Shown: positions 31,842 through 57,628 of the stretch, one piece after another
Position numbering within the stretch: position 1 is the first letter of the stretch
Layout of the letters: the number at the start of each line of letters is the position of its first letter
Origin: a virus
Taxonomy: Duplodnaviria > Caudoviricetes
Direction: 5' to 3' (one strand)
Virus record (IMG/VR): IMGVR_UViG_3300042291_001013
DNA: 64,000 nt
Position numbers and translations under genes: made by a program
Notes under the pieces: generated by a model
What the model was told of the DNA's origin: nothing
Database searches by the model: none
Seen by the model: only the letters and a program-made list of their open reading frames with translations

Positions 31842-33167
31842 TTAGTGGAACATCAAGTAACTGTCAATCACGTCTAGTCGATTGGCCGCACGATCGCCTG
31901 CACCGGGCTGTACAATAACGTTCCATTTAGGCTTGGGGCCTTCAGGAGTGGCCAGCATTTGATCGTATGTGATAATGGTGTCCCTGGGCACTTGATACTG
32001 TTGTGCCAGTCGATCTTTAAATGTGTCCAGAGCTTCGGGTGACGCAAACTGTGTGCGACCCTTGGCGTCTTTGATTAGACTGTTGCCCTTACGTGCAATT
32101 AAATCAAAGAACATGTTCTTGGGCACTGTGACGCCTTGCTTGACTGTGTTGCCTGCTTGACGATGCAACTCAACCTTTTTGACTTCGCGGCTCTTGCTAC
32201 CGGAACTGAAGTTGATTATAAAGTTAGGCGGATGCGAGCCTGTGGCCACATCGCCCATTTTGGTATAAGCATAGAATTTAACGTCAGGATTGGCCTTGGC
32301 CACATCATATGCTAGGTCAAGGTATTCTTTACTAAAGAAGTCTCCTGCATCGTGCCAGCGCACCACAAGCTGAATACCAGCTTTATCTGTTTTGTTTTTG
32401 AGTGCTGTGATTTCTTTGTTTACAGCGGCCATGTAGCCTTCAGGCTCATTTACCAGGAAGTTCAAGGCCTGTGCCGCGCTCATGCTAGACGCCGGGAACA
32501 TTACATAACCGCCTTTACGTGCATAGCAGAACAACTGACATTCGCCTGCGCCCGGGCAGGTCTTTATTTCCACAAAGTCACCCGACTCTTCATCTACTAC
32601 AATACCACTCAGTGCAGGCAGTGTTAGATCATAAATGATTTCACCTTCGGTCTTGCTCTTTTCCATTTTGGCATTGGTGCCTAGAATAGCTCGAGGACGT
32701 GTGGTGATTTGCTTGGCTAGATCATCTAGATCCCACTCAGTGCCGCCATCGTCCTTGGTAATGGCTTTAATGTTTGAGCCGTGTATAATGGGTGCAAACT
32801 TGTCACGCTTGGTCTTGGTGCCTGTTTTGATACGGTCAGCATAGCCTTGCAATTCATCTCGACTCAGTGTTTGTTGTGGTGCATTGAGCTTGATAGCTTC
32901 CGCCACACCTTGCTCGTTTTTAACTACAAAACTTGTGTGCTGAAGACCAGTAAGGGGGTCCGTGTATGTGCGCTTGAACACCTTACCGCCATGCTCACGT
33001 GCATGAGCAAATGCTTCAGACTTGCTGTCAAACCTGTTTGAGGGAGGCTTAATCATGGGAGACGCTTGTTCATCTACTCCGCTTTGATCTACTGTGACAA
33101 CAGTAACAGGGAATCCTCCCAGGGTGCGCGGAGCTTCAGCTTGCTCCACAATGGTTTGTAACTTCAT
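31842..33167 (-). CDS. Modular protein: leader + small module + Gp88-like (radical-SAM-like) domain
   Basis: MKLQTIVE leader; SGVDE and EQGVAE junctions; CPGAGECQLFCYA, RWHDAGDF, FYAYTK. Confidence 0.7.
   Translation of the reverse strand: MKLQTIVEQAEAPRTLGGFPVTVVTVDQSGVDEQASPMIKPPSNRFDSKSEAFAHAREHGGKVFKRTYTDPLTGLQHTSFVVKNEQGVAEAIKLNAPQQTLSRDELQGYADRIKTGTKTKRDKFAPIIHGSNIKAITKDDGGTEWDLDDLAKQITTRPRAILGTNAKMEKSKTEGEIIYDLTLPALSGIVVDEESGDFVEIKTCPGAGECQLFCYARKGGYVMFPASSMSAAQALNFLVNEPEGYMAAVNKEITALKNKTDKAGIQLVVRWHDAGDFFSKEYLDLAYDVAKANPDVKFYAYTKMGDVATGSHPPNFIINFSSGSKSREVKKVELHRQAGNTVKQGVTVPKNMFFDLIARKGNSLIKDAKGRTQFASPEALDTFKDRLAQQYQVPRDTIITYDQMLATPEGPKPKWNVIVQPGAGDRAANRLDVIDSYLMFH
32897..32914 (-). 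repeat. 18-bp dispersed repeat encoding the QGVAE linker (copy 1)
   Basis: Plus-strand cttccgccacaccttgct identical at 57427-57444; 14-bp core also at 57594-57607. Confidence 0.85.
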
Positions 33168-35815
33168 TTTGCTTCTCCAAATATAGGCCCACGCACAAAT
33201 TGGCCCAGTTGATTTAATATACCATTACGCAGGTTTTCAATCATTTCATCTGTGATATCTCTACGGCGTGTTTGCGCAATAAAGATATGCATTTCAATGG
33301 CGTCATCGCCTTCTTTTTCCAGTATAGCATGGCAACGATGACGTCCGTCATGTCCTTTTACTCGGGCTTCTAGACTAAAGTCACCCTGCTCCCAGGATTC
33401 GGGTACAGACACATTCAAAAATGGTGCGCCAATGCCGCGCTCATTGAGTTCGCCTTTGCAAAACGCAATTGCCTTGCGCTCTTCAGGATCATGTGGGTCC
33501 ATGGGCAGGGCCAGCTTTAGAAACATCGACGGGCGCATTTGTACCTGTAGGCCAAAGTAATCAACGTCAGCATTGTAGGGCACAGCACCCACACCTGAAG
33601 AGTTGTTGATACGTACTTCGTCTAGGCTTTCATTTTTTCTTTTGGCTCGGGCACGACCTGATTTCATGTTGGCCAACCAGTGTGCCAGTTGTCCTTTGCG
33701 CCCGCCTGATTTGGCAGTTTTGCGTAAGCTACTTACACTTGCTTTGGTATTGATACCGTGTCGCTTGGCATCGCCCTTGTCTTGTGGATTACGCCCGTCG
33801 GCAAAGTTTTCTGATACACCTTGCTTGTCAGCCCAGAGCAAGCGTCCTTCTTCTTGCGCTATACGATGTATGTTGGTTCCCAATTTGGTGGGCTGTATGT
33901 CATAGTTGTCGAACTGTGCTGAAAGTTTTTGAAGTATTCTTACAGCACCAAGATATTGATCGCCCACAAGATCATCAGGCACAACTACCAGGATATCAGT
34001 GTCGCTGTTTCTACGATGTTTTCCTGTAGCGCGACTACCATGGAACCATATTTCTTGTGCCACAGGCATGACTTTTTGTATGGCATCAACCACTTCTGGC
34101 CGTACAGAACCTGGTCGAGCTTCGTCTACGTTGTATGTGGGATCAGTCTTTTGACGCGGCATGTCTGGGGGCTGATTGGGATCAACAGGGTCAATGTCTG
34201 TTGTAGTAAGCCCAGTGCGTTTCAGCGCCTGTATGTACTGATGTTCAAGATCTTCGTCACCAAAGCTCAGTATGGCGCTGGGAGGTCCGGCACCAAAGTC
34301 ATGCTTGCCTAGGCCTTTCATGTTGGAAATATGTTGTCCCAGCTTGTACCAGTCGTAGACATCGCTTACATCTACCTTGACAGTGCCTGCAGGCATAGTG
34401 GGCGGAGTTTCTGGGCCCAAGGGTGCATTTAAATCCCTATTGTTGTTGGGACCTTTACTGGGCTGGGGCAAGCGGTATTCTACCATGTCAACTCGGCCGT
34501 CAGCACGTAGCATTTGTGGGCGACCTTGTGCATCAGTTTTTAGACTCATGCGGTTGGCATTTAATCCTGTGGCGCCGGGACGTACATCCTGTGTTAGAGC
34601 CATTTCAAATCTGGGATCATTCTTTTCGGCTTCAGTGGGAATATAACCTGAGCTTTCAAACATAGCAGGGTTGCGATCAGCCCAGTCACGCATGATCACA
34701 CCGGCCACAGCATGTGCTTGGTTTTCCCAGTCACTGCCGGTGTCGCCTGCTTCGTCAGGCAACTCACTATCTTGATTTTGTCTACAATGTGCCAGCTCGT
34801 GTGCAGTGGTGCGCAAGATATCCATGACATGGCGGTTAACCAGGCTCACTTCTAGTGTGTGCGTTTCAGGCGTGTAGCGTCCAAAGCTGTGGCTTTGGGA
34901 ACTCCACTCAGGGTCAGTGTGCAGTTCAATCTGTGGTATTTGTGTTATGCCCAAGCGATCTGCCGCATAGTCAATAAAGTCACGCACCACAGCTTCAGTG
35001 TCCCGGGGCTCGTCTTCTAGGAACATCTTGGTTGAAGGATCCACACCGTCTGGACTTTCTGACATGAAGCCGTAGATTACCGGCGCCATTGGGGTGTTCT
35101 TTTCTGCTAGGCTAAGTTCCTTGGCATGTGCGGCATTGCGAGCGTCAATTAACTGTTTGATAGCACCATGTGCTCGCAACATCTTGAACACCAAGTTGTC
35201 GCAGCCAAATTCGCCCTGCTGTTCCAGGCCAGTTTGGCGCATGGTTTTGATTTTTTGTTGTAGACTACGCATACGATCACTATCGTCACTGGCCACAGCA
35301 GATTCTATACGTGCTTTTAGATCTTGATACTTGGCTTGTACACAGCTATCGTCAATGGTGACTTGTCTGCGTCGAGGAACCTGTATCCAGGCATTGCGCA
35401 ACAAACTGTAAATGCCTTGACTGTGATGTTCTTGATCAGAAGGCTGTGCATACAGTTCTACATCAGCGCCGCCAATGCGTATGTTGTGTTGTTCGTTGTA
35501 CTGATATTTTTTAGCATTAAACAGCTCACGATACACTTCGTCATGAACAACATTGGGTATTTCCACCACAATGTGCAGATCAATGTCAGATCCGTCAGTG
35601 TAGTTGTAGGCCGCGTTAGATCCGCTTACCGTGATGTCTTTGACATCAAGATCGGGTACGCCCAAGAATTCTTGAAAGTCTCGGGCCACCTGTAACAGGC
35701 GTTCTTTTACCTGGGGATGCAGATGTTCTGCACTGTCCCATAACCGAGGGTTGAGTCGGTCATGGAATTTTACAGCATCTGCCAGGTTGAATGATTCCAG
35801 TTCAAATATGTTCAT
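33164..35815 (-). CDS. Multidomain polyprotein-like protein: Pol-beta NTase + HExxH zincin + minimal NTase + ParB-like domain
   Basis: GSNAAYNY...SDIDLHIV; TAHELAH; FHGSRA...SDTDILVV; GHDGRHR; junctions end in FLE, FES, NVDE, QGVSE, SLDE. Confidence 0.75.
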   Translation of the reverse strand: MNIFELESFNLADAVKFHDRLNPRLWDSAEHLHPQVKERLLQVARDFQEFLGVPDLDVKDITVSGSNAAYNYTDGSDIDLHIVVEIPNVVHDEVYRELFNAKKYQYNEQHNIRIGGADVELYAQPSDQEHHSQGIYSLLRNAWIQVPRRRQVTIDDSCVQAKYQDLKARIESAVASDDSDRMRSLQQKIKTMRQTGLEQQGEFGCDNLVFKMLRAHGAIKQLIDARNAAHAKELSLAEKNTPMAPVIYGFMSESPDGVDPSTKMFLEDEPRDTEAVVRDFIDYAADRLGITQIPQIELHTDPEWSSQSHSFGRYTPETHTLEVSLVNRHVMDILRTTAHELAHCRQNQDSELPDEAGDTGSDWENQAHAVAGVIMRDWADRNPAMFESSGYIPTEAEKNDPRFEMALTQDVRPGATGLNANRMSLKTDAQGRPQMLRADGRVDMVEYRLPQPSKGPNNNRDLNAPLGPETPPTMPAGTVKVDVSDVYDWYKLGQHISNMKGLGKHDFGAGPPSAILSFGDEDLEHQYIQALKRTGLTTTDIDPVDPNQPPDMPRQKTDPTYNVDEARPGSVRPEVVDAIQKVMPVAQEIWFHGSRATGKHRRNSDTDILVVVPDDLVGDQYLGAVRILQKLSAQFDNYDIQPTKLGTNIHRIAQEEGRLLWADKQGVSENFADGRNPQDKGDAKRHGINTKASVSSLRKTAKSGGRKGQLAHWLANMKSGRARAKRKNESLDEVRINNSSGVGAVPYNADVDYFGLQVQMRPSMFLKLALPMDPHDPEERKAIAFCKGELNERGIGAPFLNVSVPESWEQGDFSLEARVKGHDGRHRCHAILEKEGDDAIEMHIFIAQTRRRDITDEMIENLRNGILNQLGQFVRGPIFGEAK

Positions 35816-35836
35816 TGAACTGTTATTTACCGCAGT

Positions 35837-36808
35837 TTAGGGTGTAGTGGGTTCTGAACTATTGGTGGCCACAATTTCAGCCACGGGTTCAGCTTCCAGC
35901 ACATGTGTAGGTACTTCGTGTCCACCCTGTGGATTCATTGTGATAGTACCGTCAGCATGTGGTGTAACAGCGGCTCGTGCAGTAGAAGGCGCAGGTACTT
36001 GTACCACGTCTGTGCTGATCACCGGGCTGGTCATGGCATTGAGGTCAATCTTGAGTTTTTCCTGTGCGGCCCAGTCAAACACATAAGTGCCCACGTGACG
36101 TAGTAACACACGCTTGTCAACCCAGACCTGCCCACCAAGATCACGCCAGTTTTCACAGAATGTCCAGTCTTCACTGTAGTAGCGGCCTTCGCGTACTGCT
36201 GTGTCAAAGTAGGTTTTCATGTAAGGGTCCAACTCAGGTGGCAAGCCAATGTCGTTTTTAAACGGCTTGGTGGCAGGGTGTGCATTGAGCTTTTCAAACA
36301 CATCACGCTTGATCAACAAAAAGCCTGTGCCGGTCTTGGTAACTTCAATGTGATTTTCTTCCGGAGCAGGTTCAGGAGTTCCAGGAATACCATTAACACA
36401 CCATTTGATAGGCATGCTCTTCATGGGGTACAATCCGCCAATAATGTCTTTTTGTGCATCCAACATCACCAACAGGTGCCAGGGTTCCCAGCCAATGTCA
36501 GCGTCAACAAACATCAAGTGTGTGGACTCTTTGGTGTGCAAGAACTTGGCTGTGAGCGTGTTTCTAGCACGGCTAATCAAGCTCTCGTTGGTCATGGTTT
36601 CCACGGTCCAGTCAAGGTTCAATTGACGTGCCATGTTGGCCCATTTGATATAGCTCATGAAGGTTTGTTCAGTAAGCTGACCACCATAACATGGCATACA
36701 GATATGCACTCGGGTGGTACGCAAATAGTCCAAGTTTACTTGAATGTTTTGCTGTTGTGTAGCAGTGGGGTCACTGGGTGGTGTAATAGTAGGTTGGGCG
36801 TCAGCCAT
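35837..36808 (-). CDS. GT-A fold glycosyltransferase-like protein
   Basis: ICMPCYGG, ISRARN, LMFVDADIGW (DxD), GTGFLLIKR, SEDWTFC; start at MADAQP after TAAATA 36834-36839. Confidence 0.7.
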   Translation of the reverse strand: MADAQPTITPPSDPTATQQQNIQVNLDYLRTTRVHICMPCYGGQLTEQTFMSYIKWANMARQLNLDWTVETMTNESLISRARNTLTAKFLHTKESTHLMFVDADIGWEPWHLLVMLDAQKDIIGGLYPMKSMPIKWCVNGIPGTPEPAPEENHIEVTKTGTGFLLIKRDVFEKLNAHPATKPFKNDIGLPPELDPYMKTYFDTAVREGRYYSEDWTFCENWRDLGGQVWVDKRVLLRHVGTYVFDWAAQEKLKIDLNAMTSPVISTDVVQVPAPSTARAAVTPHADGTITMNPQGGHEVPTHVLEAEPVAEIVATNSSEPTTP

Positions 36809-36859
36809 GTTATCTCCGTTAAAAGTGTGCAGATATTTAATGCAGTACACCCGGTACTA

Positions 36860-37516
36860 TTAAATTCTGTACCATGTAGTATACACTATTTCACGGGCAC
36901 GTTGCAACCTAGCGTTGTCATTTGTAGTTTCTTGATCTGTGGCCAACTCACGCACAGCACGTTGATAAATGTCAAGATCACCCGATTCGGGTTCAAACAC
37001 ACAACTGCGACGATACTGGTCAAATGCTTGTTCGGCCCCAGCATTAAACAAAAGATTCAAAGTGGTCAGTTCTTTCAAACGTGAAAGAAATTGCTCGGGC
37101 TCTTGCCAAATATCACACCATTCTAGATTGAATTGTACGCCTCGACGAATCCAACCTGCATACTGTGCGGCAATTTGGTAACGAACCCCCTGGTCTTCAG
37201 AACGACCTGTTTTCTTTTGTAGATTCAAAAAGAAGTTGAACCAGGCACGATCTGATCCCAGAACAATTTCACAATCGTGCCAGGTAATGCTGTGTTCGCG
37301 ACGTTGAAAATAATTTTGATATTTTATTTCTGAATTTGAATTAACAATTGATTCTATTACTGGAAAATCAAAATTGTCAACATCCCCGCTAATGGATTGA
37401 TTATGTAGCGAGCACCAGGTCAAATAATTCAACCAAGCGCCACCACTGCCCATGGGATACCATAATTTAGGCAATTGCTGTAACTGTGTCCAGGAACCGT
37501 TGACGATCAAGGTCAT
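36860..37516 (-). CDS. Hypothetical protein, possibly sulfotransferase-like P-loop fold
   Basis: N-terminal WYPMGSGGAWL. Confidence 0.45.
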   Translation of the reverse strand: MTLIVNGSWTQLQQLPKLWYPMGSGGAWLNYLTWCSLHNQSISGDVDNFDFPVIESIVNSNSEIKYQNYFQRREHSITWHDCEIVLGSDRAWFNFFLNLQKKTGRSEDQGVRYQIAAQYAGWIRRGVQFNLEWCDIWQEPEQFLSRLKELTTLNLLFNAGAEQAFDQYRRSCVFEPESGDLDIYQRAVRELATDQETTNDNARLQRAREIVYTTWYRI

Positions 37517-38242
37517 TTAAACCCCGCCACGTTCTTCTAGGTAGTCCTGTACAGGCTGATTTTCTCGGGCCTGATAACTGGCTTTCATTCCACCCACTGA
37601 CATCTGTCCCAGTGTTTCGTTTGTGAATGAAGCGGCCCAGCCTTGGTTTTCCGCCACAGTACCAATGGCAGTGTCCAGCATTTTTACAATGTTTGCGGCC
37701 AAGGCCGGATTTGACTGCGTGGCAGGATACAAACTCATGACCAAGGCAGTTTTGCGCTTTTCATTAAGCTGTGGCCATGCATTACGAATTTCTGTGGCTG
37801 ACGTCATGCCTGGACCAAACTCCACTGTGGGCAAGTAGGCCATGTAAGCATGCTGACCAAATGGCGCAATGTTTGTTTCACCTGCCAAGGGCTGTAGGTA
37901 TGCTGGGCTACCATCTTTTTTGATGCCACCGGGTTGTGGAGGTTTGTTGGCGTCTTTTTCTGAACGCACAAATATCAATCGATCTTTTTCAGGATCAAAT
38001 TGACTGGTAATTTCTTCAGCTCTAAATGGTGATTTGACCTGCACAAAATGTCCGGGCTCGACACCAGCTAATTTTGCCAGCTTTTCTTTTACAGCAAAGG
38101 GAAATGGTCTACTGGAGGTATCGTTTGTTGCGGCCACAAACACCTTGGCGCCGGGAAATGCTTTACGGGCAGAATTATACAGTGCAAGATGTCCTGCGTG
38201 AAACGGGTGAAATCCCCCGGGCATGATAACAATGGTACTCAT
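37517..38242 (-). CDS. Cytidylyltransferase-like (HxGH) nucleotidyltransferase
   Basis: MPGGFHPFHAGH, SATEIR; TAAATA at 38249-38254. Confidence 0.75.
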   Translation of the reverse strand: MSTIVIMPGGFHPFHAGHLALYNSARKAFPGAKVFVAATNDTSSRPFPFAVKEKLAKLAGVEPGHFVQVKSPFRAEEITSQFDPEKDRLIFVRSEKDANKPPQPGGIKKDGSPAYLQPLAGETNIAPFGQHAYMAYLPTVEFGPGMTSATEIRNAWPQLNEKRKTALVMSLYPATQSNPALAANIVKMLDTAIGTVAENQGWAASFTNETLGQMSVGGMKASYQARENQPVQDYLEERGGV

Positions 38243-38257
38243 AATGAGTATTTAGCG

Positions 38258-38701
38258 TTACATGTGCTCCAAGAGCCAGAGATAGATAGGGGTAGAAAAT
38301 GTCAGTATAACTGTGCCGTTACAGCCCATGGTTCCGTAACAGCGTTCAGTAACTGAGTCACCGGTACCGTTGAAATTGTGCTGATACTGTGCTAGAGTTT
38401 GAAATACCTGCGTTACGTCAATGTCGTCAAATTCCACAGCGTCTATTCGTAAACAACTGTCGTATTCAAATCGGCCGTCTGCGTCAAGATGCGCATGGCT
38501 GTCATTTTTGCCATACAGTTCAATTTCCAGCCGGTGTTCGCCGTCTTGATCCGGCATAAACTGATGCAACACTGTTCTTGCTGTGACTGCATCAGTTCTG
38601 TAGAGTTCGTTGCCGTTCAAGCGAATGCACACGCCCAAGGGGCGATCAGGATCTGTGGGCTCAATGGCCAGGGCCAGAGCAATGGTATTTGCGTCAGTCA
38701 T
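38258..38701 (-). CDS. Hypothetical protein
   Basis: 147-aa ORF. Confidence 0.7.
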   Translation of the reverse strand: MTDANTIALALAIEPTDPDRPLGVCIRLNGNELYRTDAVTARTVLHQFMPDQDGEHRLEIELYGKNDSHAHLDADGRFEYDSCLRIDAVEFDDIDVTQVFQTLAQYQHNFNGTGDSVTERCYGTMGCNGTVILTFSTPIYLWLLEHM

Positions 38702-39063
38702 TAGTAAGTAATAGTAACAGTGTTAATAGTGCCGCCACTAAAGCCTTCAACTCGCACACGCATCCATGTGAAGTTGCCCAGCACAGTTTCGGGATGATAG
38801 TCTGTGAGTGGTATGGTACTGCCATCGCCATACACAAAAGTGGGGAACCAAGTGGCTTGGCCAGGATCTTGATCCAGAGTTGCTTCTAGAGTCATGTCAC
38901 CTTCAAATCCTGTCACAGTAAACAGCACAGTTTGTGTGCTGCCTTGCCCACGATAGTAGGCAGCAGCCTTGACCGCATCACTGATCCAGTCTTGACTGCT
39001 TCCGTCATAGTTGCCGGAAGGCGTACCATAAACAGTGGTATCAAGAATGGTTTGAGTGGTCAT
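38701..39063 (-). CDS. Hypothetical beta-rich protein
   Basis: 120-aa ORF, TAATG coupling. Confidence 0.7.
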   Translation of the reverse strand: MTTQTILDTTVYGTPSGNYDGSSQDWISDAVKAAAYYRGQGSTQTVLFTVTGFEGDMTLEATLDQDPGQATWFPTFVYGDGSTIPLTDYHPETVLGNFTWMRVRVEGFSGGTINTVTITY

Positions 39064-39227
39064 TATGCTCGTTCTGCTTCTACAACAACACCGGCACCGG
39101 CCAGTTCTTCAGCCACTGATTGCAGAGCCGCAACAATGTCATCGGTAGCAACTGCTTTGACAGCGTCGTTATCTTTGATCAATTTTGAGAGTTTGATCAC
39201 AACTACTTCTTCGTGTATTTTTGCCAT
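39063..39227 (-). CDS. Small hypothetical protein (54 aa)
   Basis: Hand-read MAKIHEEVVVIKLSKLIKD...; TAAATA at 39235-39240. Confidence 0.65.
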   Translation of the reverse strand: MAKIHEEVVVIKLSKLIKDNDAVKAVATDDIVAALQSVAEELAGAGVVVEAERA

Positions 39228-39237
39228 AGTGTATTAT

Positions 39238-42112: not shown

Positions 42113-42181
42113 AGAGTCCTTGTGTAATGTCATACGCTATTATACTACTTACACCAAAAAACCACAACCATTACGGATAGG

Positions 42182-42979: not shown

Positions 42980-42980
42980 G

Positions 42981-43245: not shown

Positions 43246-43249
43246 GATT

Positions 43250-43738: not shown

Positions 43739-43750
43739 GTTGGCTCCTTT

Positions 43751-45363: not shown

Positions 45364-45364
45364 T

Positions 45365-46246
45365 TTAGCAGTTCCACTTTCTTAGTGCTAGAGCTTTGCG
45401 TGTGGGCTTACCATTGGGCTTTTTCATTGGGCCTTTAACTCCGCCCATTCTTGCACAGAAACTCTTGCGGCGCTTGGCTGCTTTTGATCCTGGCTTGAGC
45501 TTGCTGGGCTTTGTGGTCACTGCCATTTGCAATTTACTACCAGGATTCTCTCTGCGATAGCTGGCAACACCTTTGGCGTTGAGTCCGCCTTTTTTGCTCT
45601 TGCCTGCACTGCGTCTCCAGGCGGCTGTTTCGTATAACACGTTGTCTGGCATGGCTTCAAACTGTTCCCACACTAGGTCTTTACTCACGCGATTTTTAAT
45701 AGACATTTCTTCAGCCAACTCGTCCATGGCTTCAAACATGGCGTCTATCTCGGGATCCACTTCGTCTGAGGCTTCTTCTGAATACATGTAATCCCATACC
45801 GCAACCAACATTGATTTGGCCACAGCAATTTTTTCTTGGCACCATTCAGGCAAGTTGTCACCTGATTGAATCAAGTCATCAATGCCTTCAACAGCACGTT
45901 GCAATGTTTCCAAGTTGTTGTCAGCCATGCCTGCTTCGTCATCGTATTCAGGGTTGTAGTTTTCGTCCACGCCTGCTTCTTTCTTTTTAGCAATAGCAAT
46001 TGCGGCTTGCTGTGCAGGATTGGCAGCTTCTTCAACACCTTCTGATTTGTTGCCATAACTGCCAGCGCCTTTTTTGCGACACTGAACCAAGCGTCCAGAT
46101 GCATACGCACTTGGCCATACCTTGGCACTTGCTTTGACCTTGTAGTAACAAGCGTCTTTCTTTTCTGTCATCATCATTTCACTAAACATGGGCCCGCCGC
46201 AATGCGGACATTTGTGTGATGACTCTGTTATGTCTTTGAATTTCAT
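45365..46246 (-). CDS. Modular basic/acidic protein, candidate internal head polyprotein
   Basis: MKFKDITE leader; modules bounded by MTE, EGVEE, AGVDE, LYE. Confidence 0.7.
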   Translation of the reverse strand: MKFKDITESSHKCPHCGGPMFSEMMMTEKKDACYYKVKASAKVWPSAYASGRLVQCRKKGAGSYGNKSEGVEEAANPAQQAAIAIAKKKEAGVDENYNPEYDDEAGMADNNLETLQRAVEGIDDLIQSGDNLPEWCQEKIAVAKSMLVAVWDYMYSEEASDEVDPEIDAMFEAMDELAEEMSIKNRVSKDLVWEQFEAMPDNVLYETAAWRRSAGKSKKGGLNAKGVASYRRENPGSKLQMAVTTKPSKLKPGSKAAKRRKSFCARMGGVKGPMKKPNGKPTRKALALRKWNC

Positions 46247-46818
46247 TTGCGTTTTCCTTTGGTACTTACATTTATGGCGGCACCCGAACGGTTGGGATTG
46301 GGATCTTCTCGGCGTTTGCGGGCTGCCGCACTGGCACGACCTTTTTTGCCCAGGGCATGTGCTTTGGCTTGAGGCAAACACTTGGGCTTGCCTTCTTTAC
46401 TACTGCCTCTGGCACAGTCCCCACGTATCTTGCCGTCGGGTCCAAATCGAACCCACTTTTGTTTAAACCAGTCTCGAAGATTTTCTTCAAGCTCTTGAGT
46501 TGACATTTTCTTTTCATACCCTTGCACAGCAGTGTTTCTAGCAGGGTTGGGTGCATCTTTAAATTTGGATGCTGGCAAAAACTTGTCAATACTTTTCAAT
46601 GTTAGTGGACCCATTATGCCATCTATGTCCAAGTTGGCATTGTGTTCTTGATTTAGCATTTGCTGTATTCTGCGTACCGAGTCAGAATCTTTATTTTCTT
46701 CTTCAAGTTCTGTTTCACTCACAGGCACACAATTGGGAACCATTCTAGAGCCTTTTTTCTTCATGCCAGCTTGACGGTATCCGTCCCAGCAGGCTTCTAG
46801 TATTTCTCTGTATCTCAT
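46243..46818 (-). CDS. Modular protein with peptidoglycan-binding-like module, candidate internal head polyprotein
   Basis: MRYREILE leader; CWDGY...VPNCVP; VRRIQQML...DIDGIMGPLT; LEE junctions. Confidence 0.7.
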   Translation of the reverse strand: MRYREILEACWDGYRQAGMKKKGSRMVPNCVPVSETELEEENKDSDSVRRIQQMLNQEHNANLDIDGIMGPLTLKSIDKFLPASKFKDAPNPARNTAVQGYEKKMSTQELEENLRDWFKQKWVRFGPDGKIRGDCARGSSKEGKPKCLPQAKAHALGKKGRASAAARKRREDPNPNRSGAAINVSTKGKRK

Positions 46819-47282: not shown

Positions 47283-47290
47283 GCAACTAT

Positions 47291-47494
47291 TTAGTTGCGC
47301 CCCCAACGAATGTTATTCCAAACACGTTCGTGTGCAAAATACAACAAGGTGTTTACTACCAGCTGAATTACCGCAATTGTGCCAGAAATTGCAAAATCTC
47401 CCAGTATTATGTAACTGATTGCAAAAGTAGCAGTTGACCCTGTAATGCGCCAACTCACCGTCTTTACTAGACTACGAGAAGTGCTGTCACTCAA
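47291..47494 (-). CDS. DUF2061-like small membrane protein
   Basis: RSLVKTVSWR...YFAHERVW. Confidence 0.8.
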   Translation of the reverse strand: MSDSTSRSLVKTVSWRITGSTATFAISYIILGDFAISGTIAVIQLVVNTLLYFAHERVWNNIRWGRN

Positions 47495-49878: not shown

Positions 49879-50400
49879 TCCTTTTTAAATGAATATTTTA
49901 GTCAGTACTGGAAGCCCACTACTGATGCGTTTACTTATAGTGCTTATGGTGCTGTGGCCGCAAAAATACAGCCGCACGAAGAGGTTTTGGATGTGGGCTG
50001 TGGGTCTAACCCATTCAAAGCATTGTTGCCGCGTGTGACCGGAATTGATCCTGCGTTTGATCAAGCCGACATCAAATGCACAATTGAAAGCTTTCGACCA
50101 ATAAAACTGTATGACGTTGCGTTGTGCCTGGGATCAATTAACTTTGGTGACCACACTGTGATCAACAGACAAATTGCCAAAGTGATTGATTGCCTTAAAC
50201 CTCAGGCCAGAGTCTACTGGCGACTAAATCCTGGACGAACTGATCATGCCAACAGTGAATGCCAGGCTGTGCCGTTTTATCCTTGGACACATAGCAAACT
50301 GCGTAAGCTAGCACTATATCATGGATTTGAACAGCGCAATGAACAAACAGAAGGCAATGACCGTGTGCAACGATTATACGCTGAATGGCATCGCGGGTAA
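49867..50400 (+). CDS. Class I SAM-dependent methyltransferase
   Basis: VLDVGCG, GIDP, YDVALCLGSI; TAAGTA at 49854-49859. Confidence 0.82.
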   Translation: MHDQSFLNEYFSQYWKPTTDAFTYSAYGAVAAKIQPHEEVLDVGCGSNPFKALLPRVTGIDPAFDQADIKCTIESFRPIKLYDVALCLGSINFGDHTVINRQIAKVIDCLKPQARVYWRLNPGRTDHANSECQAVPFYPWTHSKLRKLALYHGFEQRNEQTEGNDRVQRLYAEWHRG

Positions 50401-51039
50401 TTGGTCAGAGATATAACGATAGCAGGCCTGGTGTGCATCTGTCAAGGGATGGCACAGGTCACTGATAGCATGCCCTTGCTTGCGACTCCAGTTCACAAAG
50501 TTGTCCCCGTCAAATGTGGTCATGTGCGGCCGTATTGAGTTTTGCATTGCAGTTAACGCTGGAGTGGTGTGAAACTCTGTTTCAAACATCAGATCGTCCA
50601 TGTAAGTCATGATAAATGGCACAGAACGTTTTTGTAGCTGATCCACGCACAGTTGTACCATGCTCAAGGTGCTGAACTTGTCCCTAAACTGTGAATGAAA
50701 ATTGCGATAGTAATAGTTGCCGTGGTTGTCGTTTTCGCTGGGGCGCAGAGTTAGCCATTTGTCTGTGCGAAAATCCACGTAGTCAAAACGATCAATCCAG
50801 GTCCAGTTCACAACATAAAAGTCTGGCTCTGAAGTTGCGGCCAGCGCAGTTAACAAGCGTTCAGCAATGTGCATATTGCCTGCGCCCGGACGTGCATAGC
50901 ATTGATACCCCCAGCCTTGACTCTGCGCCAGCAATGCTGGCCATGTCATTTGTGAAGGAGTGGCATAGGCTGTGCCGTAGCCGTCATCGGGTAGCTCGCA
51001 GCCAAACATAAAGCTACAGCCAAAACTCTTGAGATTCAA
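50374..51039 (-). CDS. SGNH hydrolase-like protein
   Basis: FGCSFMFG, CYARPGAGN, DLCHP. Confidence 0.65.
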   Translation of the reverse strand: MNLKSFGCSFMFGCELPDDGYGTAYATPSQMTWPALLAQSQGWGYQCYARPGAGNMHIAERLLTALAATSEPDFYVVNWTWIDRFDYVDFRTDKWLTLRPSENDNHGNYYYRNFHSQFRDKFSTLSMVQLCVDQLQKRSVPFIMTYMDDLMFETEFHTTPALTAMQNSIRPHMTTFDGDNFVNWSRKQGHAISDLCHPLTDAHQACYRYISDQLPAMPFSV

Positions 51040-51810
51040 TTAATATCCTGCTTTTGCTATTTCAGCACCGCGGTTAAAACTGTCACTCCATGATGCTGTG
51101 CTGACACCGCCGCGAGCCTTTGACCATTGGTAACCGGCTCTGTGTCCTGAACAGTCTTTTGTACAAGGACTCATGCCCATGAACGTTAATTCTCGCAACT
51201 GTTCTTGCCCTTTGATGCCAATTACCATGCTTCGTATATAGTCAGTCTCGGGGTCTTCAAGTTTGATTTTGTCTTTGAAAAGAACCTTTTCCAGGGGAAA
51301 TAGTTCCAGCAATTGATCAGGCGAACCAAAATTGTGTTCACTGCTGGCCTGTACATTGTCTCGGCCCTGCAGGACCACAAGAGTTCCTGAAGGTATGTTA
51401 TCAAACCAGCCATGGTCAGGAATGTCTGTGGTGCTGGTGTTTATTACCAGGCCAGGATCTTGTAACTGACGATAGTCAATTTGATTGGCATCAGCTCGCA
51501 TGTGGTCTACACCATCAATGTTCATGCTCTGTTGCATTTGTTTTCCCTGACGCAACCATTTGGCGTTCTTTTCCACGTCAATGATGCGTTCAATAGGAGT
51601 GTTGGCTTTGCGCAAGATAGTACTCAAGTTACTGTACCATGAGCCCAGTACATAAGCAACTGGCACAGAGTCAATACCCTGTTTGCGCATGACTTGTTGT
51701 AGTTCACGAGCCAACCATATCTTGCTCAAGATCAAGTCTGTGGTATAACTGCCGGCCAAGCTGTAGCCAGAACTTTCTTCAAGTGGTGCATACAGCTCGT
51801 TTAGAATCAT
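51040..51810 (-). CDS. Methyltransferase-like protein with capsid-targeting-like leader and C-terminal Cys/His micro-module
   Basis: MILNELYAPLEE; VLGSWY, IIDVE, LVINTS, VVLQG; after LRE: CTKDCSGH.AGY.W. Confidence 0.6.
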   Translation of the reverse strand: MILNELYAPLEESSGYSLAGSYTTDLILSKIWLARELQQVMRKQGIDSVPVAYVLGSWYSNLSTILRKANTPIERIIDVEKNAKWLRQGKQMQQSMNIDGVDHMRADANQIDYRQLQDPGLVINTSTTDIPDHGWFDNIPSGTLVVLQGRDNVQASSEHNFGSPDQLLELFPLEKVLFKDKIKLEDPETDYIRSMVIGIKGQEQLRELTFMGMSPCTKDCSGHRAGYQWSKARGGVSTASWSDSFNRGAEIAKAGY

Positions 51811-51971
51811 GGATTTAGTTTGAAACCTGTGCTTTGCATCACGGGAAAGTTTGATGGCGGTTTCTTTTGCTTGGGACCAAGTTGTGAGGTGCGTGGGTCA
51901 ACCACAGCATTGGGAACTCCTGATGCCACAGGAATAACTCTGTGTGTGCGATTCATTGCGGATTTTCTCAT
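51807..51971 (-). CDS. Small basic hypothetical protein (54 aa)
   Basis: Hand-read MRKSAMNRTHRVIPV...; fills the gap with ATGA overlap. Confidence 0.4.
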   Translation of the reverse strand: MRKSAMNRTHRVIPVASGVPNAVVDPRTSQLGPKQKKPPSNFPVMQSTGFKLNP

Positions 51972-51972
51972 G

Positions 51973-53520
51973 TTAAGTTCCTAGTCTTGTGTTACTTACC
52001 GACACTGCACCACTCACATTGCTGCCACTGGCAGTGTTAAACGGTAGATACGCAAATCTATTGGGACCACCATGCAAAATTTCTTCATTGCTGTAGTCAG
52101 TTTGCGATCCTGTGTCGTAGAGCATGTTGGCTGTGCTGGTGTCGATTACTTTTTGTCTTATCTGTGCTGGTGTGGCAGTGGGATATACCTGTAGCAATTG
52201 TGCGGCAAGGCCGGCCACCTGTGGTGAAGCCATGGACGTTCCTGAAATACTCATTATTTTATAACTGCCGTTTAGTGGATAAGCTGTGGTTGCGCCAAAT
52301 GTATTGGTAGTACTAGTGGTGCTTACAATGTTGGTACCTGGTGCGTAAACATCAACCCTGGGCCCAGATTCACTATCGCCAAGTTTGTGTTCAGGAGTGT
52401 CATATCCAGTGCTGACGTTGCCCACACAGATTACTCCTGTGGCACTGGCTGGTGAGCCACCACGCATGTAGTATCTAGGAGTGCTTGTTTGGTTAAAATA
52501 GTTGTCGTAATCTGGGCCGCCCAGCACATCTAAAGTTTGATAATAGTTTCCGGCTGCACCAACTAAGACCACACCTGCTGCCAGCAACTCAGCCACATCC
52601 ACATCCACACTGTCTACCCTTACGCCAAAGCGATTGGATGCACTGCCAATCATGCCATAACTGGGTTGTTTGCTACTGCCGGACCAGACTGTTCCACGAT
52701 ATACCCCGCCATTGATACTGGTAAAAGTAGTGATGTAACTCCAGCTCATATTCACAACTGTGGGACGTTTGTAGCCCAAGGCAGGGTCAACTGTTTTGTT
52801 GTTGTGCCAACCCTTGATGCAGTCAAACACATCAGTTGTTGATATCCCATTGGTAGGCGCCACATTGAGGCCGTCCACAGTCATAACATATATTCTGGCA
52901 TTTTTAGCACGACCGTATGTTTTGCCTGCGGCAATGCCACAACAGTGTGTGCCATGTCCGTCGTAGTCGGTATAAAAATTAGCAGGCATGGTGCCCGCAA
53001 TCCCTGACGCTGTGTACCAGTCTATTTGCTGTACTCTAGTCACACCGGCTGCATCTTGAAAATCAGGATGATCAACCTGACAGCCCGAGTCTTGTACCAC
53101 AAAATCTACTCCAGTACCGTCCAAGGGATAGTTGTAGGTTAATGTGCCTGATGCACCTGGGGTATTCATTGTGGTTGAATTGCATCTAAACAGCCCCCAG
53201 TTAATACCAAGATTGTTGGCAGGATTGGTTCCCGGACTTTTATAATACAAGCCAGTTTGGCTGGCGTTGTTGTGAATTTGAATATCTGAGCGATGTTCAG
53301 GAGGGAGTTCTACACAAAAAACTCTAGAGTCGTTGCGCAGGTTATCTGCTTCCTCATCAGTCAAGTCATACCAGCACTGGCGTAGACTAGTAGGTCGCTC
53401 GTTTACAATGTCTATACCGCGTTGGGGCACGTATGTACTGCCCGAGCCGTCTGTTTCTATTTCAGTCCAGAAGGCGTCATAGTCAACGCCTTCTTTGAGA
53501 GCTACGTTGTATGTGGTCAT
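51973..53520 (-). CDS. S8 subtilisin-like serine protease with I9-like prodomain
   Basis: VVQDSG (Asp), DGHGTHCCG (His), SGTSMASPQVAG (Ser). Confidence 0.92.
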   Translation of the reverse strand: MTTYNVALKEGVDYDAFWTEIETDGSGSTYVPQRGIDIVNERPTSLRQCWYDLTDEEADNLRNDSRVFCVELPPEHRSDIQIHNNASQTGLYYKSPGTNPANNLGINWGLFRCNSTTMNTPGASGTLTYNYPLDGTGVDFVVQDSGCQVDHPDFQDAAGVTRVQQIDWYTASGIAGTMPANFYTDYDGHGTHCCGIAAGKTYGRAKNARIYVMTVDGLNVAPTNGISTTDVFDCIKGWHNNKTVDPALGYKRPTVVNMSWSYITTFTSINGGVYRGTVWSGSSKQPSYGMIGSASNRFGVRVDSVDVDVAELLAAGVVLVGAAGNYYQTLDVLGGPDYDNYFNQTSTPRYYMRGGSPASATGVICVGNVSTGYDTPEHKLGDSESGPRVDVYAPGTNIVSTTSTTNTFGATTAYPLNGSYKIMSISGTSMASPQVAGLAAQLLQVYPTATPAQIRQKVIDTSTANMLYDTGSQTDYSNEEILHGGPNRFAYLPFNTASGSNVSGAVSVSNTRLGT

Positions 53521-53522
53521 TG

Positions 53523-56500
53523 TTAGATAATATTGGCCCAGGCACCATTCTCGTAACCCTGGAACTTGTTGACAGATGAATTGTAAATCATGTCACCATT
53601 TGCCGCAATAGTGTTGGCAATTTGTGCTGTGGTTAAACTAGGCAATCGGAATGTGCCGCCACCAATCACACGCACCGCAGACACCGCTGATAAGTCCAAG
53701 TTTGTGGTACTGCTTATTGTGGGAGTACCTGCGCCGCCACCAACAACATTACCAATAAAGTTACCAGCAGTAACGTTGCCAGTAGTTGATATAGGGTTAG
53801 AACCAAATGCAGCCAGATTTGCCGCTACATTGGCGTTGCCATAAGAACTAACACCGTTGGCAATACCAGTCAATAAACTGCCATTACCAATAAAATAGTT
53901 GCTAGAGATATTGCCTGTGGTACTGATTGTGTTACTGCCATACCCAGCTAGCAAGGTAACCACGTTTGAGTTACCATAACCACTTGCGGCAATACCAGTC
54001 AACAGCGATCCATTACCAATAAAGAAATTGCCAGCAATGTTGCCTGTAGCACTAACAATACCGCCAGTGCTGACGTTGGCCGCAACCATGTTGCCTGTGG
54101 CTGATATCACGCCAGGGCTAGTTATGTTGCCACCACTCACGTTACCTGTAGCTGACACCAGGCCTGACACATACGCACCAGTGTTGGCCACTACCATGAC
54201 GTTTGATGTACCGCCAATGGTTACAGTAGCGTTGCCGTTTATCAGTGGCATTGAAATAACACTGGTTCCGTTAATTACACCAGGGTGATTGTGACTTTGT
54301 TCAGCACCAACAGCGTTGGCCACGTTGCCCAGGAAGTAAGCACCTGTGACATTGCCAGTACTACTGATCACACCACCTGTGATAATGTTGCCGCCTGTGA
54401 CGTTGCCGGCAAATGTTGGTGCAGTTTCAATCCCAACTGTGGCAGTTTTACTAGTGGCATTGCCCACAATTGTGACATTGGTACCTGGAGTCAGTGTAAC
54501 TGTGTCATTGGGGCTGGAAGCCACCAAACTGGTACCGTTGGCACTGACTGTGTTGAAAATGTTTGCGGCTGCCGCAGTAATGCCTGTCAGCTGTGAGCCA
54601 TTGCCCACAAAGAACCCAGCTGCCTCAACGTTGCCCACAGCACTGATTGTGCCCAGAGATTCAATATTGTTTTCAACATTCAAGCCATCAACCACTGTGA
54701 CAAATGCACTGTTGTCAGATGTAATGGTGTTGGTAACCAGTATTGGTGTTTCAACACCGCCCTCGGCCCTGATCCCATCTTCTATAGTGACAAAACTGCT
54801 GTCGCCTGATGTGATGCGGCTGGCTGTAATAACACCTGAAACTGTCAAATTGCTCAGTGCGCCCACACTAGTAAGACTACTGTTTACAACATTGGAAGCC
54901 AGTGTATTGCCCACCAAGAGCTGTGCATTGGCATTGGTGGCCACAATGCCAGTCAGCTGTGATCCATTGCCAACGTAGTAACTTGCAAATATATTGCCTG
55001 TGGCACTAATGTTGCTAGCGGCACTCATGCCAGCAGTGGCTTTGACAAATACGCCCTGAATGTTGGCAGTTGTTGTAACGTTGCCAGCCAAAAGTGATAA
55101 GTTACCGGTGTATGTGGGCAAATACGTTGCAACGTTGGCATTGCCATACGATGCCGCAATGCCTGTGAGCAAGGCTCCGTTGCCTAGTACATAGCCGCCT
55201 GTGGAGATATTACCAGTGGCAGTGACAGCACCAGTTATGGTTGTATTGCCACCTGATACAGCGCCCGAGACCGCCAGCGAAGTCAGTGTGCCCACTGACG
55301 TAATTGCTGACTGTGCAGGATTGGTCACTGTGTTGGCAGTTGCGGCGCTGGTGGCAAAACTAGAATTCTGTGCAGTCAGCGCATTGCCAGAGTTGGCCGC
55401 ATAGCCTGCATTGGCCACTGTGCCCGAAACATTGGCACCAGTTATTGAGCTCAGTGCCGAACCATTGCCGCTGATGTTACCACTACTAATGTTACCAGTA
55501 ACTGCCAGCGTTGACAGCGTGCCTACTGAAGTGATATTGGGCTGTGCGGCTGTGGTCACTGTGCCTGCTGTGATGGCCACTGTGGCCAAGGTGGCTGAAT
55601 TTGCAGAGCCAGCAGTGTTGGCAAAATATGCATTGTTTACAATGCCCAACACGTTGGCGCCAGTGATATTGCTGAGTTGTGCGGCGCCACCAATGAAGTT
55701 GGCCCCAGTCACATTGCCAGCTGTACCTAAATTGCCTACGTTAGCATTACCAGTTAATGATATGGCCTCGCCAGTGATATTGCCAGTGTATGTGGGTAAG
55801 AACATGGCTACGTTTGAGTTGCCGTATCCAGACTGAACTCCAGTTAAGAAAGCACCATTGCCAACAAAGTACCCAGTGGTGGTTCTGATATTTCCCACAG
55901 CAAGTACACCATTTAGGGCATTTAAGTTATTGCCAGCCAGGATGTTTCCAACGGTGCTGATAAATCCGCCAACGTTGGCATTGCCTGTAGTGGAAATATT
56001 GTTGGGAGTCAAGTTGCCGGTGTATGTGGGCAAGTACGCCTGCACATTGGCATTGCTGTAAGTGGCTGGCAATCCAGTCAGCTGTGATCCGTTACCAAAC
56101 AGATACCCAGTTGTGGTGATATTGCCAGTTGACACCAAGGATGTTAGAGTGCCCACACTAGTGATATTGGGCTGTGCGGCAGTGGTCACTGTTTGAGCTC
56201 GCACTGCTGTTGTGGCTGTGGCTGCCAGGGTTGCCACAGCAGCCTGCTCAGCATTGGTTGCGTAACTGGCATTGGCCACTGCACCTGACACATTGGCGCC
56301 AGCCACACTGTAGGCCACGTAGGCTATGTTAGCAATTGCGGCTTGATTTACTATACCTGACACATTGGCGCCGGCCACAGCACCTGCTGAGTTGGCATAG
56401 TTTGCTATGCTGGCTGCTCCTGCTGATGTGGCATATGTGGCGTTGGCCACGGTGCCCGAAACGTTGGCACCAGTCACGCTGTAGGCCACGTTGGCTGTGG

Positions 56501-57086
56501 TAGCTGAAGTTGCTGTGCCTGAAAGATTTGAATACTGTGCGTTGGCCACAAGACCAACCACATTACTACCTGTGATACCGGAAAGTCTTGAGCCTGATCC
56601 AACAAAATAAGCCGCATCCACATTGCCTGTGGTGGCCAAGATATTGGTATTGGCATTGTAAGTTAGATTACCACTAGCACCAAATGTGCCATTTTGATTG
56701 AACTGGATCTGGGTGTTTCCACCTGCGGCAATACCAGCACCGTTGCCACCGGCAACTTGAATTAGAATATTGCCATTGCCCAGATTGTTTAAGTAAACAC
56801 CCGGGCCGGTAAAGTTCAGTGTGTTGGCTGATGTTGTAAGAGTATTGCTGTCATACTGTATGGTCACTGTGCGTGGCAGCGCGGCTACCACTACGTTTTG
56901 TGTAGGCAAAGGAGCAAACAAGTTGCCCAGGCCAGTACTTTGAGCTGGTGGACGTGAAAGTCCAGTTTGTGCAGGAACCGGAATTGGCACACCTGAACCA
57001 GGACCTGGCGGTACTGGATCGGGCGCTGTATCAAGCGGTCCAATTACGCCGTCTGCTATGGTAGGGGTGATATTCGCGGTTGGCAT
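53523..57086 (-). CDS. Long Gly/Asn/Thr-rich repetitive tail-fibre-like protein
   Basis: Many (F/Y)xGNG(S/A)xLTGI, AQPNITSVGTL and YGNANV...LPTYTGN repeats; C-terminal GDMIYN...FQGY..GAW. Confidence 0.75.
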   Translation of the reverse strand: MPTANITPTIADGVIGPLDTAPDPVPPGPGSGVPIPVPAQTGLSRPPAQSTGLGNLFAPLPTQNVVVAALPRTVTIQYDSNTLTTSANTLNFTGPGVYLNNLGNGNILIQVAGGNGAGIAAGGNTQIQFNQNGTFGASGNLTYNANTNILATTGNVDAAYFVGSGSRLSGITGSNVVGLVANAQYSNLSGTATSATTANVAYSVTGANVSGTVANATYATSAGAASIANYANSAGAVAGANVSGIVNQAAIANIAYVAYSVAGANVSGAVANASYATNAEQAAVATLAATATTAVRAQTVTTAAQPNITSVGTLTSLVSTGNITTTGYLFGNGSQLTGLPATYSNANVQAYLPTYTGNLTPNNISTTGNANVGGFISTVGNILAGNNLNALNGVLAVGNIRTTTGYFVGNGAFLTGVQSGYGNSNVAMFLPTYTGNITGEAISLTGNANVGNLGTAGNVTGANFIGGAAQLSNITGANVLGIVNNAYFANTAGSANSATLATVAITAGTVTTAAQPNITSVGTLSTLAVTGNISSGNISGNGSALSSITGANVSGTVANAGYAANSGNALTAQNSSFATSAATANTVTNPAQSAITSVGTLTSLAVSGAVSGGNTTITGAVTATGNISTGGYVLGNGALLTGIAASYGNANVATYLPTYTGNLSLLAGNVTTTANIQGVFVKATAGMSAASNISATGNIFASYYVGNGSQLTGIVATNANAQLLVGNTLASNVVNSSLTSVGALSNLTVSGVITASRITSGDSSFVTIEDGIRAEGGVETPILVTNTITSDNSAFVTVVDGLNVENNIESLGTISAVGNVEAAGFFVGNGSQLTGITAAAANIFNTVSANGTSLVASSPNDTVTLTPGTNVTIVGNATSKTATVGIETAPTFAGNVTGGNIITGGVISSTGNVTGAYFLGNVANAVGAEQSHNHPGVINGTSVISMPLINGNATVTIGGTSNVMVVANTGAYVSGLVSATGNVSGGNITSPGVISATGNMVAANVSTGGIVSATGNIAGNFFIGNGSLLTGIAASGYGNSNVVTLLAGYGSNTISTTGNISSNYFIGNGSLLTGIANGVSSYGNANVAANLAAFGSNPISTTGNVTAGNFIGNVVGGGAGTPTISSTTNLDLSAVSAVRVIGGGTFRLPSLTTAQIANTIAANGDMIYNSSVNKFQGYENGAWANII

Positions 57087-57088
57087 TG

Positions 57089-57628
57089 TTATCGTTCTTT
57101 CTTAGGCTGCTGTGCAGGTTGTACCGCTGTGGGTACGTTTTTATAAACACGTTTTTCAGGATCGTAAACTGTTTTTAGTGGGCCCATGCCTGCTAGCTGT
57201 TTAACTCGGGCAACCATGGCTTGATAGTCATCGCCATAGTCTGCTTCTTTTTCTTTGTTTTCTGCTACACCTTGCTTTTTAGCTTGTTGAATCTTTGCTT
57301 GTATTAATTTTAACTGTTTGCTCAATGGGTCGTCTAGACCAACACGACCGCCGTCTTTTACAATAGCATCGATCTTGTCGCTGATTTCGCTTGCTTTAGC
57401 TTTTAATGATGTTAAATCATCAGCGCCTTCCGCCACACCTTGCTTTCTATTATCCAATTTGGTAAACGCTTTAACAAAATTAGGACCACTTTTCATGCTT
57501 TTTGAGTCACTGCGTTTTGTAGGATCCATTTTGTGTTTAAGGTTATCTTTATCTAATTTTGTTAGATAACTGGTTAGCGTAGCATCACTAACCTCCGCCA
57601 CACCTTGAGTAAATTCATTCAGTCTCAT
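57089..57628 (-). CDS. Modular protein of three segments separated by QGVAE, candidate internal head polyprotein
   Basis: MRLNEFTQGVAE...RKQGVAE...KKQGVAE; start moved to 57628. Confidence 0.75.
   Translation of the reverse strand: MRLNEFTQGVAEVSDATLTSYLTKLDKDNLKHKMDPTKRSDSKSMKSGPNFVKAFTKLDNRKQGVAEGADDLTSLKAKASEISDKIDAIVKDGGRVGLDDPLSKQLKLIQAKIQQAKKQGVAENKEKEADYGDDYQAMVARVKQLAGMGPLKTVYDPEKRVYKNVPTAVQPAQQPKKER
57427..57444 (-). repeat. 18-bp dispersed repeat encoding the QGVAE linker (copy 2)
   Basis: Identical to 32897-32914. Confidence 0.85.

Follow-up and report, generated by a model that had tools for sequence, protein, structure and literature searches.

The stretch of DNA analyzed here (64,000 nt, hereafter the window) lies within a 128-kb IMG/VR record, IMGVR_UViG_3300042291_001013, which was judged 34% complete and comes from an uncultured freshwater T4-related jumbo phage. 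Several of its genes appear to encode strings of unrelated small modules behind a T4-like capsid-address leader, and between modules stands a short linker whose consensus reads K/E-Q-G-V-A-E, with G or A next. We think it likely that the linker has a joint role, its shared in-frame DNA joining modules by recombination and its peptide serving as a cut site of the gp21 type. Comparison between contigs shows the first part, the linker as a recombination junction, as far as alignments can reveal one; QGVAE is also probably a prohead-protease site, judging from its sequence context.

Copies of the linker in the window

An earlier note on this DNA had reported an 18-mer identical at 32897 and 57427, a 14-bp core of it at a third site, and the linker variants KQGVAE, KQGVSE, SGVDE, EGVEE, and AGVDE. 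All of these were found again. In a search of the window, the 18-mer CTTCCGCCACACCTTGCT was present exactly at 32897-32914 and 57427-57444, within unrelated flanking DNA, and with three mismatches at 57259-57276 and 57592-57609, the last of which contains the 14-bp core. These four matches compare with 0.06 expected from dinucleotide shuffles, and the entire 128-kb record contains two exact copies. Every 18-mer match lies on the coding (minus) strand of a long open reading frame (ORF), and the variants, all read on the coding strand, are among eight G-V-x-E sites spread across four minus-strand genes:

57089..57628, minus strand: ORF of 179 aa, comprising the leader MRLNEFT with linker 1, module M1, linker 2, module M2, linker 3, and the C-terminal module M3; linker peptides TQGVAEV, KQGVAEG, and KQGVAEN
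57593..57607, minus strand: linker 1, QGVAE, encoded by CAA GGT GTG GCG GAG and closing the N-terminal leader
57428..57442, minus strand: linker 2, QGVAE, encoded by the canonical CAA GGT GTG GCG GAA and followed by GGC
57260..57274, minus strand: linker 3, QGVAE, encoded by the variant CAA GGT GTA GCA GAA AAC, with variant codons common to the linker of the 883-aa gene
31842..33167, minus strand: gene for a 441-aa protein, comprising a leader ending in SGVDE, an inserted 57-aa module, a QGVAE linker, and a GP88 (PF17338) domain; linker peptides EQGVAEA and QSGVDEQ
32898..32912, minus strand: canonical QGVAE linker that joins the GP88 domain to the inserted module
33069..33083, minus strand: SGVDE, a degenerate hydrophobic-x-Glu site that closes the leader of the 441-aa protein and corresponds to the leader-GP88 junction of leader-only homologs
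33164..35815, minus strand: multimodule gene of 883 aa, with two nucleotidyltransferase-like regions and others; linker peptide KQGVSEN
33809..33823, minus strand: QGVSE linker of the 883-aa gene, encoded by CAA GGT GTA TCA GAA AAC
45365..46249, minus strand: gene for a 294-aa protein, comprising the leader MKFKDITE, a Zn-ribbon module, EGVEE, a short module, AGVDE, a helical module, and a basic DUF6321 C-terminal domain; linker peptides SEGVEEA and EAGVDEN
46028..46042, minus strand: EGVEE, a degenerate linker; ends of high-scoring segment pairs (HSPs) cluster at residues 65-80
45962..45976, minus strand: AGVDE, a degenerate linker; HSP starts cluster at residues 80-100

The codons CAA GGT GTG GCG are used by three of the four QGVAE copies in the window, GCG being only 10% of the genome's Ala codons. 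Given genome codon usage, the probability that at least three of four copies would be alike is 0.001, and that any pair would be alike in all five codons is 0.05. The linkers at 57260 (KQGVAEN) and 33809 (KQGVSEN) are 1 nt apart in 21 and have the derived codons GTA-xCA-GAA-AAC in common, in unrelated genes. Everywhere in the window, DNA likeness between linker sites stops at ~20 nt, beyond which the flanks are unrelated.

Conservation of the linker as DNA

We compared these sites with 93 related IMG/VR loci (1.05 Mb). They contain QGVAE 63 times, where 0.22 would be expected, and QGVAEG 41 times, where the expectation is 0.01; the flanking contexts of the sites number ~100. A k-mer count proposed in the earlier note has thus been run both genome-wide, where it gave the two copies of the 18-mer, and in related contigs, where QGVAE is far above expectation. 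At 57 nonredundant QGVAE sites, the codons are CAA (53), GGT (53), GTG (43), GCG (44, with 4.6 expected), and GAA (53); 31 of the 57 carry an identical 15-mer, and the Gly after the linker is GGC in 28 of 36. The conserved core comprises ~20 nt, AG CAA GGT GTG GCG GAA GGC. At its silent positions, the A of CAA is conserved at 92%, the T of GGT at 95%, and the third bases of GTG and GCG at 77 to 79%.

Repetition by chance or through codon bias is an explanation to which we give practically no weight. The lone identical pair within the window, at P = 0.05, would leave it some room, but the comparative counts refute it, as does the use of the rarest Ala codon at most sites: GCG is used for the linker Ala at 77% of sites but for 6% of the Ala residues in the remainder of these ORFs. 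When orthologous linkers with flanks aligned on both sides were compared, 89 of 96 codons (93%) were identical, whereas conserved flanking residues share 41 to 72% of their codons. Codon bias, which the earlier note had named as something that might account for the k-mer frequency, is ruled out by these two comparisons. Supply by phage tRNAs is an unlikely cause of GCG use, since the same ORFs avoid GCG elsewhere; the window holds no tRNA genes.

The conserved DNA is tied to the reading frame. All 100 distinct copies of the 15-mer with at most two mismatches lie in frame inside long ORFs, and the related loci yielded none out of frame, antisense, or in intergenic DNA. Likewise, 102 of 103 copies of the 17-mer in IMG/VR encode QGVAEG, in 80 loci read back among the matches listed, and ten related IMG/VR genomes and contigs that were searched contain 0 to 6 canonical copies each, all on the coding strand. 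A frame-independent DNA signal, such as a Chi-like, packaging, or modification site, was rejected given that no off-frame, opposite-strand, or intergenic copy exists. A two-tetrad G-quadruplex (GG-TGT-GG-C-GG-AA-GG) is disfavored from the conservation pattern alone, because the third bases of GTG and GCG that it requires are the least conserved and the T of GGT, which it does not need, is conserved at 95%. The T4 late promoter TATAAATA, also considered, has only two copies in the window, neither of them close to the linker genes.

The earlier proposal that the linker is kept as a DNA cassette holds for the canonical form, Q/E/K-GVAE, and fails for SGVDE, EGVEE, and AGVDE, which look like ordinary degenerate hydrophobic-x-Glu sites and not like copies of the cassette.

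It is conceivable, though we consider it rather unlikely, that the linker is a cleavage or boundary element whose silent sites are kept for a reason of RNA or translation, with exchange as a by-product. One candidate reason is a ribosome pause at the Shine-Dalgarno-like AGGUG and the rare GCG, which would let the upstream module fold. Indeed, the two best-kept silent positions (A of CAA and T of GGT) fall inside AAGGTG, GCG is the rarest Ala codon, and among homologs of the GP88 gene, junctions that follow a leader alone, with no folded module upstream, are not canonical. Pausing accords less well with the derived variants, which travel together (GTA-xCA-GAA-AAC in two unrelated window genes) and thereby indicate descent by copying. 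Nor does it predict that 1-nt variants that change the amino acid (QGMAE and QDVAE) should be nearly as frequent per site as silent ones, or that linker 1 should be canonical when only a 7-residue leader and no folded module precedes it. A linker maintained as a handle for exchange fits the cassette transfers described below, the derived variants common to several genes, and the near-equal frequencies of silent and replacement 1-nt variants. The silent positions are probably kept because only linkers that retain the common sequence go on taking part in exchange.

Exchange of modules at the linker

The 179-aa protein is composed of three modules that recur separately:

57428..57592, minus strand: module M1 with its 3' linker, an exchanged cassette with 96% DNA identity to locus L111 over 183 bp, linker to linker
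57260..57427, minus strand: module M2 with its 3' linker, an exchanged cassette with 88 to 93% DNA identity to loci L084, L085, and L090, bounded by linkers
57092..57259, minus strand: module M3, a conserved C-terminal module that ends many proteins of variable length

In a search of 1.84 billion proteins, 855 clusters matched the 179-aa protein, module by module. The matches in other contigs are single modules (residues 9-68, 61-123, and 123-171) that sit in polyproteins of 500 to 770 aa in which the same linker recurs. M1 and M2 take up many different places along proteins of 134 to 1,272 aa (M1 in proteins of 134 to 768 aa), and M3 stands at the C terminus, after a linker, in 108 of the 150 matches listed. 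Protein HSPs most often start at -5/-4 and stop at 0/+1, counted from the linker Glu; homology ends within 3 aa of a linker in 14% of cases versus 3.5% at random. In the 883-aa protein, HSP starts cluster at residues 660-669, which is its QGVSE linker.

Exchange was then sought at the DNA level as isolated segments at least 85% identical between otherwise divergent contigs. In 22.9% of cases, such a segment stops within 10 nt of a linker, versus 0.8% at random, and 94 of 512 segments have both ends at linkers. The linker-to-linker segments form 16 cassette families of 160 to 520 bp with 86 to 97% identity, M1 and M2 among them. M1 is 96% and M2 88 to 93% identical to copies elsewhere, while other genes shared with those contigs are 65 to 77% identical. 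Content therefore differs between related phages with the junctions at the linker, as the earlier note had suggested looking for, and what is found has the features of motif shuffling: a short nucleotide-conserved sequence flanks variable segments, and exchange junctions coincide with it.

The GP88 gene offers the plainest example of such a junction. Homologs with only the leader upstream have drifted junctions (e.g., QDVDE and GATDE), whereas those with differing upstream modules have a canonical Q/K/N-GVAE, encoded by GGT GTG GCG GAA, before the same downstream sequence. The 441-aa protein of the window corresponds to the leader form with a 57-aa module and a linker inserted at the GP88 junction.

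Structure prediction and homology breakpoints agree with the claim that the linker falls at module boundaries. The AlphaFold model of the 441-aa protein has a mean predicted local distance difference test (pLDDT) score of 80, with residues 1-42 below 50, residues 45-84 at 71 to 79, residues 85-89 below 50, and residues 91-441 high; the linker lies in a low-confidence hinge of five residues that connects the GP88 domain to a small folded module. In the 179-aa model, made from a shallow alignment, pLDDT dips at or beside linkers 2 and 3, and residues 58-69 are below 50. The GP88 model gave nothing significant against the Protein Data Bank (PDB) with Foldseek; weak PDB matches of the domain (31842-32897, minus strand) are to TIM-barrel and radical-SAM-like folds, and a conserved C-x5-C-x3-C occurs in TCPGAGECQLFCYA.

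Since the junctions are exact and free of indels, homology-guided exchange is favored over random joining followed by selection. Exact, indel-free junctions would also be produced by a dedicated phage recombinase or endonuclease that recognizes the ~20-nt core, in the manner of integron-like in-frame cassettes, and the nucleotide core is indeed sharply bounded. We nevertheless regard a dedicated enzyme as very improbable. The motif is confined to the coding frame and strand; beside the polyprotein genes examined, no gene for a recombinase or homing endonuclease was noticed (no systematic search was made); and recombination of the T4 type is reported to need only small patches of homology, <50 bp (PMC2839356).

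Logan contigs from lake metagenomes, in which rare variants cannot show, end at 57454/57455, 57578, and 57607, and have loose ends into unrelated sequence at 57607 and 57244. Because lake contigs end or diverge at linkers, the assembly graphs appear to branch there, which is expected if variants with other modules coexist.

The linker as a probable protease site

T4 gp21 cuts after L/I-X-E; a 10-residue capsid targeting sequence (CTS) directs packaging, and CTS positions 8 and 10 govern processing (PMC9026906). A logo of 123 linker sites shows an invariant Glu at P1, with V, M, or I at P3, A at P2, and G or A at P1'. In every GP88 homolog, the conserved domain is immediately preceded by [VILT]-x-E, regardless of what stands upstream. 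The gp21 family (PF03420, Peptidase_S77) scored above the cutoff in all 4 of the 4 complete relatives, and in L100, the one relative examined in detail, the head genes are ordered portal, acidic protein, protease, scaffold, and major capsid protein. In the relatives, L-x-E stands in the capsid protein where the maturation cut would be expected, and LAE occurs four times in the scaffold.

The leaders in the window resemble a CTS by sequence pattern: MRLNEFTQGVAE, MKLQTIVE-QAE, and MKFKDITE are short, N-terminal, and end in hydrophobic-x-Glu. Neighboring genes start with MRNYLNLLE and MRYREILE, and among GP88 homologs the leader is conserved. A capsid or virion context for the cargo is suggested by the neighbors of the 179-aa gene:

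57625..58786, minus strand: two genes immediately upstream of the 179-aa gene, matching PHROGs annotated as virion structural protein (phrog_13138, 5e-16; phrog_12928, 7e-28)

In related loci, seven internal twin-arginine (Tat) signals, RRGFLKG followed by an Ala/Gly-rich hydrophobic stretch, lie 5 to 8 residues after linker-type sites; the 128-kb record of the window itself has no such midchain signal. These signals could work only if exposed and thus fit cutting at the linkers. They were seen in L015 (7805-10468), L004, L155, and four other related loci, for example as QGVAE-GSLEE-x-D/N-RRGFLKG.

Alternatively, QGVAE might be an uncut flexible spacer or a short docking motif in proteins that act as whole chains, its likeness to a protease site being coincidental. 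The evidence for cutting is indirect, and the AlphaFold models speak just for flexibility. We find an uncut spacer improbable, given that the GP88 junction retains P1 Glu and a hydrophobic P3 also in homologs whose motif has otherwise drifted, that Tat signals placed midchain right after linkers would not work unless exposed, and that relatives have a T4-type protease together with capsid and scaffold proteins containing L-A-E words.

Proposed mechanism and its weight

In the joint reading that we favor, homologous recombination between coinfecting phages, or between genes, has joined modules at identical in-frame DNA. Cassettes of 160 to 520 bp move from linker to linker, each product staying in frame. 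The V-A-E peptide would be cut by a gp21-type prohead protease: the leader would take the module string into the prohead, the protease would separate the modules, and these would be delivered with the DNA, some of them exposing a Tat signal upon release. A more far-reaching version, to which we assign only a small probability, describes a two-role device in which lake jumbo phages trade capsid-delivered effector modules at an in-frame docking site, whose DNA is kept for exchangeability and possibly recognized by a dedicated enzyme, and in which Tat cargo is reexported to the periplasm of the next host.

Several points weigh against the joint reading. Many of the counts take in related sequences and are not independent events, and ~65% of homology breakpoints lie away from any recognizable linker. 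Copy number is low (0 to 6 per genome), so second-order selection for exchangeability would need to act mainly between phages. The P3 residue is Val at the linker versus Leu or Ile in T4. In the 128-kb record of the window itself, which is 34% complete, neither a protease nor a capsid gene was detected, and the protease is known only from relatives. Cleavage, packaging, and ejection are inferred from indirect evidence, and the possibility that silent sites are kept for an RNA or translation reason counts on the same side.

Relation to known systems

The internal proteins IPI, IPII, and IPIII and the Alt protein of T4 carry a capsid targeting sequence that is removed by the gp21 prohead protease (PMC9026906, PMC3012670). 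The proteins described here are similar in having a short leader that ends in hydrophobic-x-Glu, diverse cargo with only the address peptide in common, and, as seen in relatives, a gp21-family protease in the same phage lineage. They differ in that unrelated modules are chained in one ORF, while T4 cargo comes from separate genes with one site each; in that a six-residue linker is repeated and its DNA kept at silent positions; and in having Val at P3 and a longer conserved consensus, Q-G-V-A-E-G. In the giant phages phiKZ, 201phi2-1, and SPN3US, head proteins are cut after Glu at S/A-X-E or A-X-E (PMC9026906, PMC10052503). Many head proteins are cut after Glu there, some propeptides several times, which recalls the putative Glu-ended sites here; in contrast, those motifs are minimal and have not been reported as conserved in DNA or as marking exchange junctions, and the lineage here is a different one, whose nearest isolates are PA5oct, Phosso, Atu_ph07, and GAP32.

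PeSL cassettes and the elements of the T-even IP locus are short conserved sequences that flank variable genes and act as sites of homologous recombination (PMC2839356). Here, too, conserved short sequences shuffle what they flank, as PeSLs do in loci that include those of internal proteins. However, PeSLs are intergenic, ~100 bp long, and consist of a promoter and a stem-loop, whereas the linker is ~20 nt long and within the reading frame; no intergenic element with promoter and stem-loop was found at the linker, all copies being in frame with no similarity beyond ~20 nt. Furthermore, the linker encodes a presumed cut site and shuffles protein modules, not genes. The glycine-rich motifs of the gp38 adhesin and motifs of T-even tail fibers are in frame and separate hypervariable segments, with exchanges between them (PMC3157838). 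Conserved in-frame motifs thus part hypervariable segments in both cases, but the gp38 motifs form the structural core of one folded domain that is not cut, and the modules here are self-contained and mutually unrelated.

The earlier note knew of no description of such a system, and a literature search likewise found none; among the ten listed of 50 full-text matches to QGVAE, all were alpha-synuclein papers. What appears to be new is the combination, a nucleotide-conserved in-frame core of ~20 nt that both encodes a presumed cut site and marks an exchange junction. If true, this would be a rule for evolving multidomain proteins, in which DNA guides in-frame recombination and the peptide releases the modules; because the linker would serve in both capacities, almost any new combination would stay functional. 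It would also point to a large hypervariable pool of small, probably injected proteins (the 855 clusters matched by one 179-aa protein), which would be candidates for antidefense functions in uncultured freshwater phages, and the linker would be a ready design for packaging multiple cargoes in T4-type capsids.

The phage, its relatives, and other genes

Related IMG/VR contigs reach 235 to 355 kb (complete relatives), some with terminal repeats. The region had no match, and hence no close relative, among GenBank phages by megablast; by portal similarity (~50%), the nearest isolates are Pseudomonas PA5oct, Sinorhizobium Phosso, Agrobacterium Atu_ph07, and the GAP32/Rak2 group. PA5oct, Phosso, Atu_ph07, and GAP32 have 0 to 1 QGVAE each. 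The linker core is absent from all 50,697 GenBank phage records searched, and bacterial genomes gave only lone, scattered matches in unrelated taxa, which fits chance for a collection of that size. The stretch from 56000 to 58600 was found in at least 24 lake-water metagenome runs. Leader genes that are scattered in the window (at 57 kb, 46 kb, and 31 kb) sit together in some relatives (L084, L006, and L008, compared with 31.4 to 57.6 kb), and cargo-gene order is therefore rearranged between phages as well.

The 179-aa protein had no Pfam or PHROG family match, and a database protein of equal start and length is 99% identical to it. Its gene resembles an array of hypervariable cargo that ends in a constant tail, M3. 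This module has the conserved pattern ...YQ-MV-RVK-LAG-GPLKTVYDP-KRVY-NVP... and may be either a targeting domain or a core protein of high abundance; it was rejected as a clade-wide tag, since only 1 of 5 near-complete relatives has it.

In the 883-aa protein, ~7 modules are apparent, including the two nucleotidyltransferase-like regions and a segment containing HExxH, and homology breakpoints lie at L/V/M-x-E words near residues 240-275, 385-400, 440, 565, 665, and 722. The Zn-ribbon and helical modules of the 294-aa gene recur in other contexts in L084, L085, and L092. At least seven PHROG families, with profiles of 99 to 928 positions, are matched at their C-terminal end by its very basic DUF6321 domain (45365-45650, minus strand), which thus behaves like a second C-terminal module that variable proteins have in common.

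Next to the 179-aa gene, a fiber-like protein of 1,187 aa (53523-57086, minus strand) consists of repeated segments with N-G-S-x-L-T-G-I and is followed by an S8 subtilase gene (51973-53520, minus strand). From 53.7 to 56.1 kb, metagenome contigs show numerous joints and back-steps, a sign that the number of repeats may vary.

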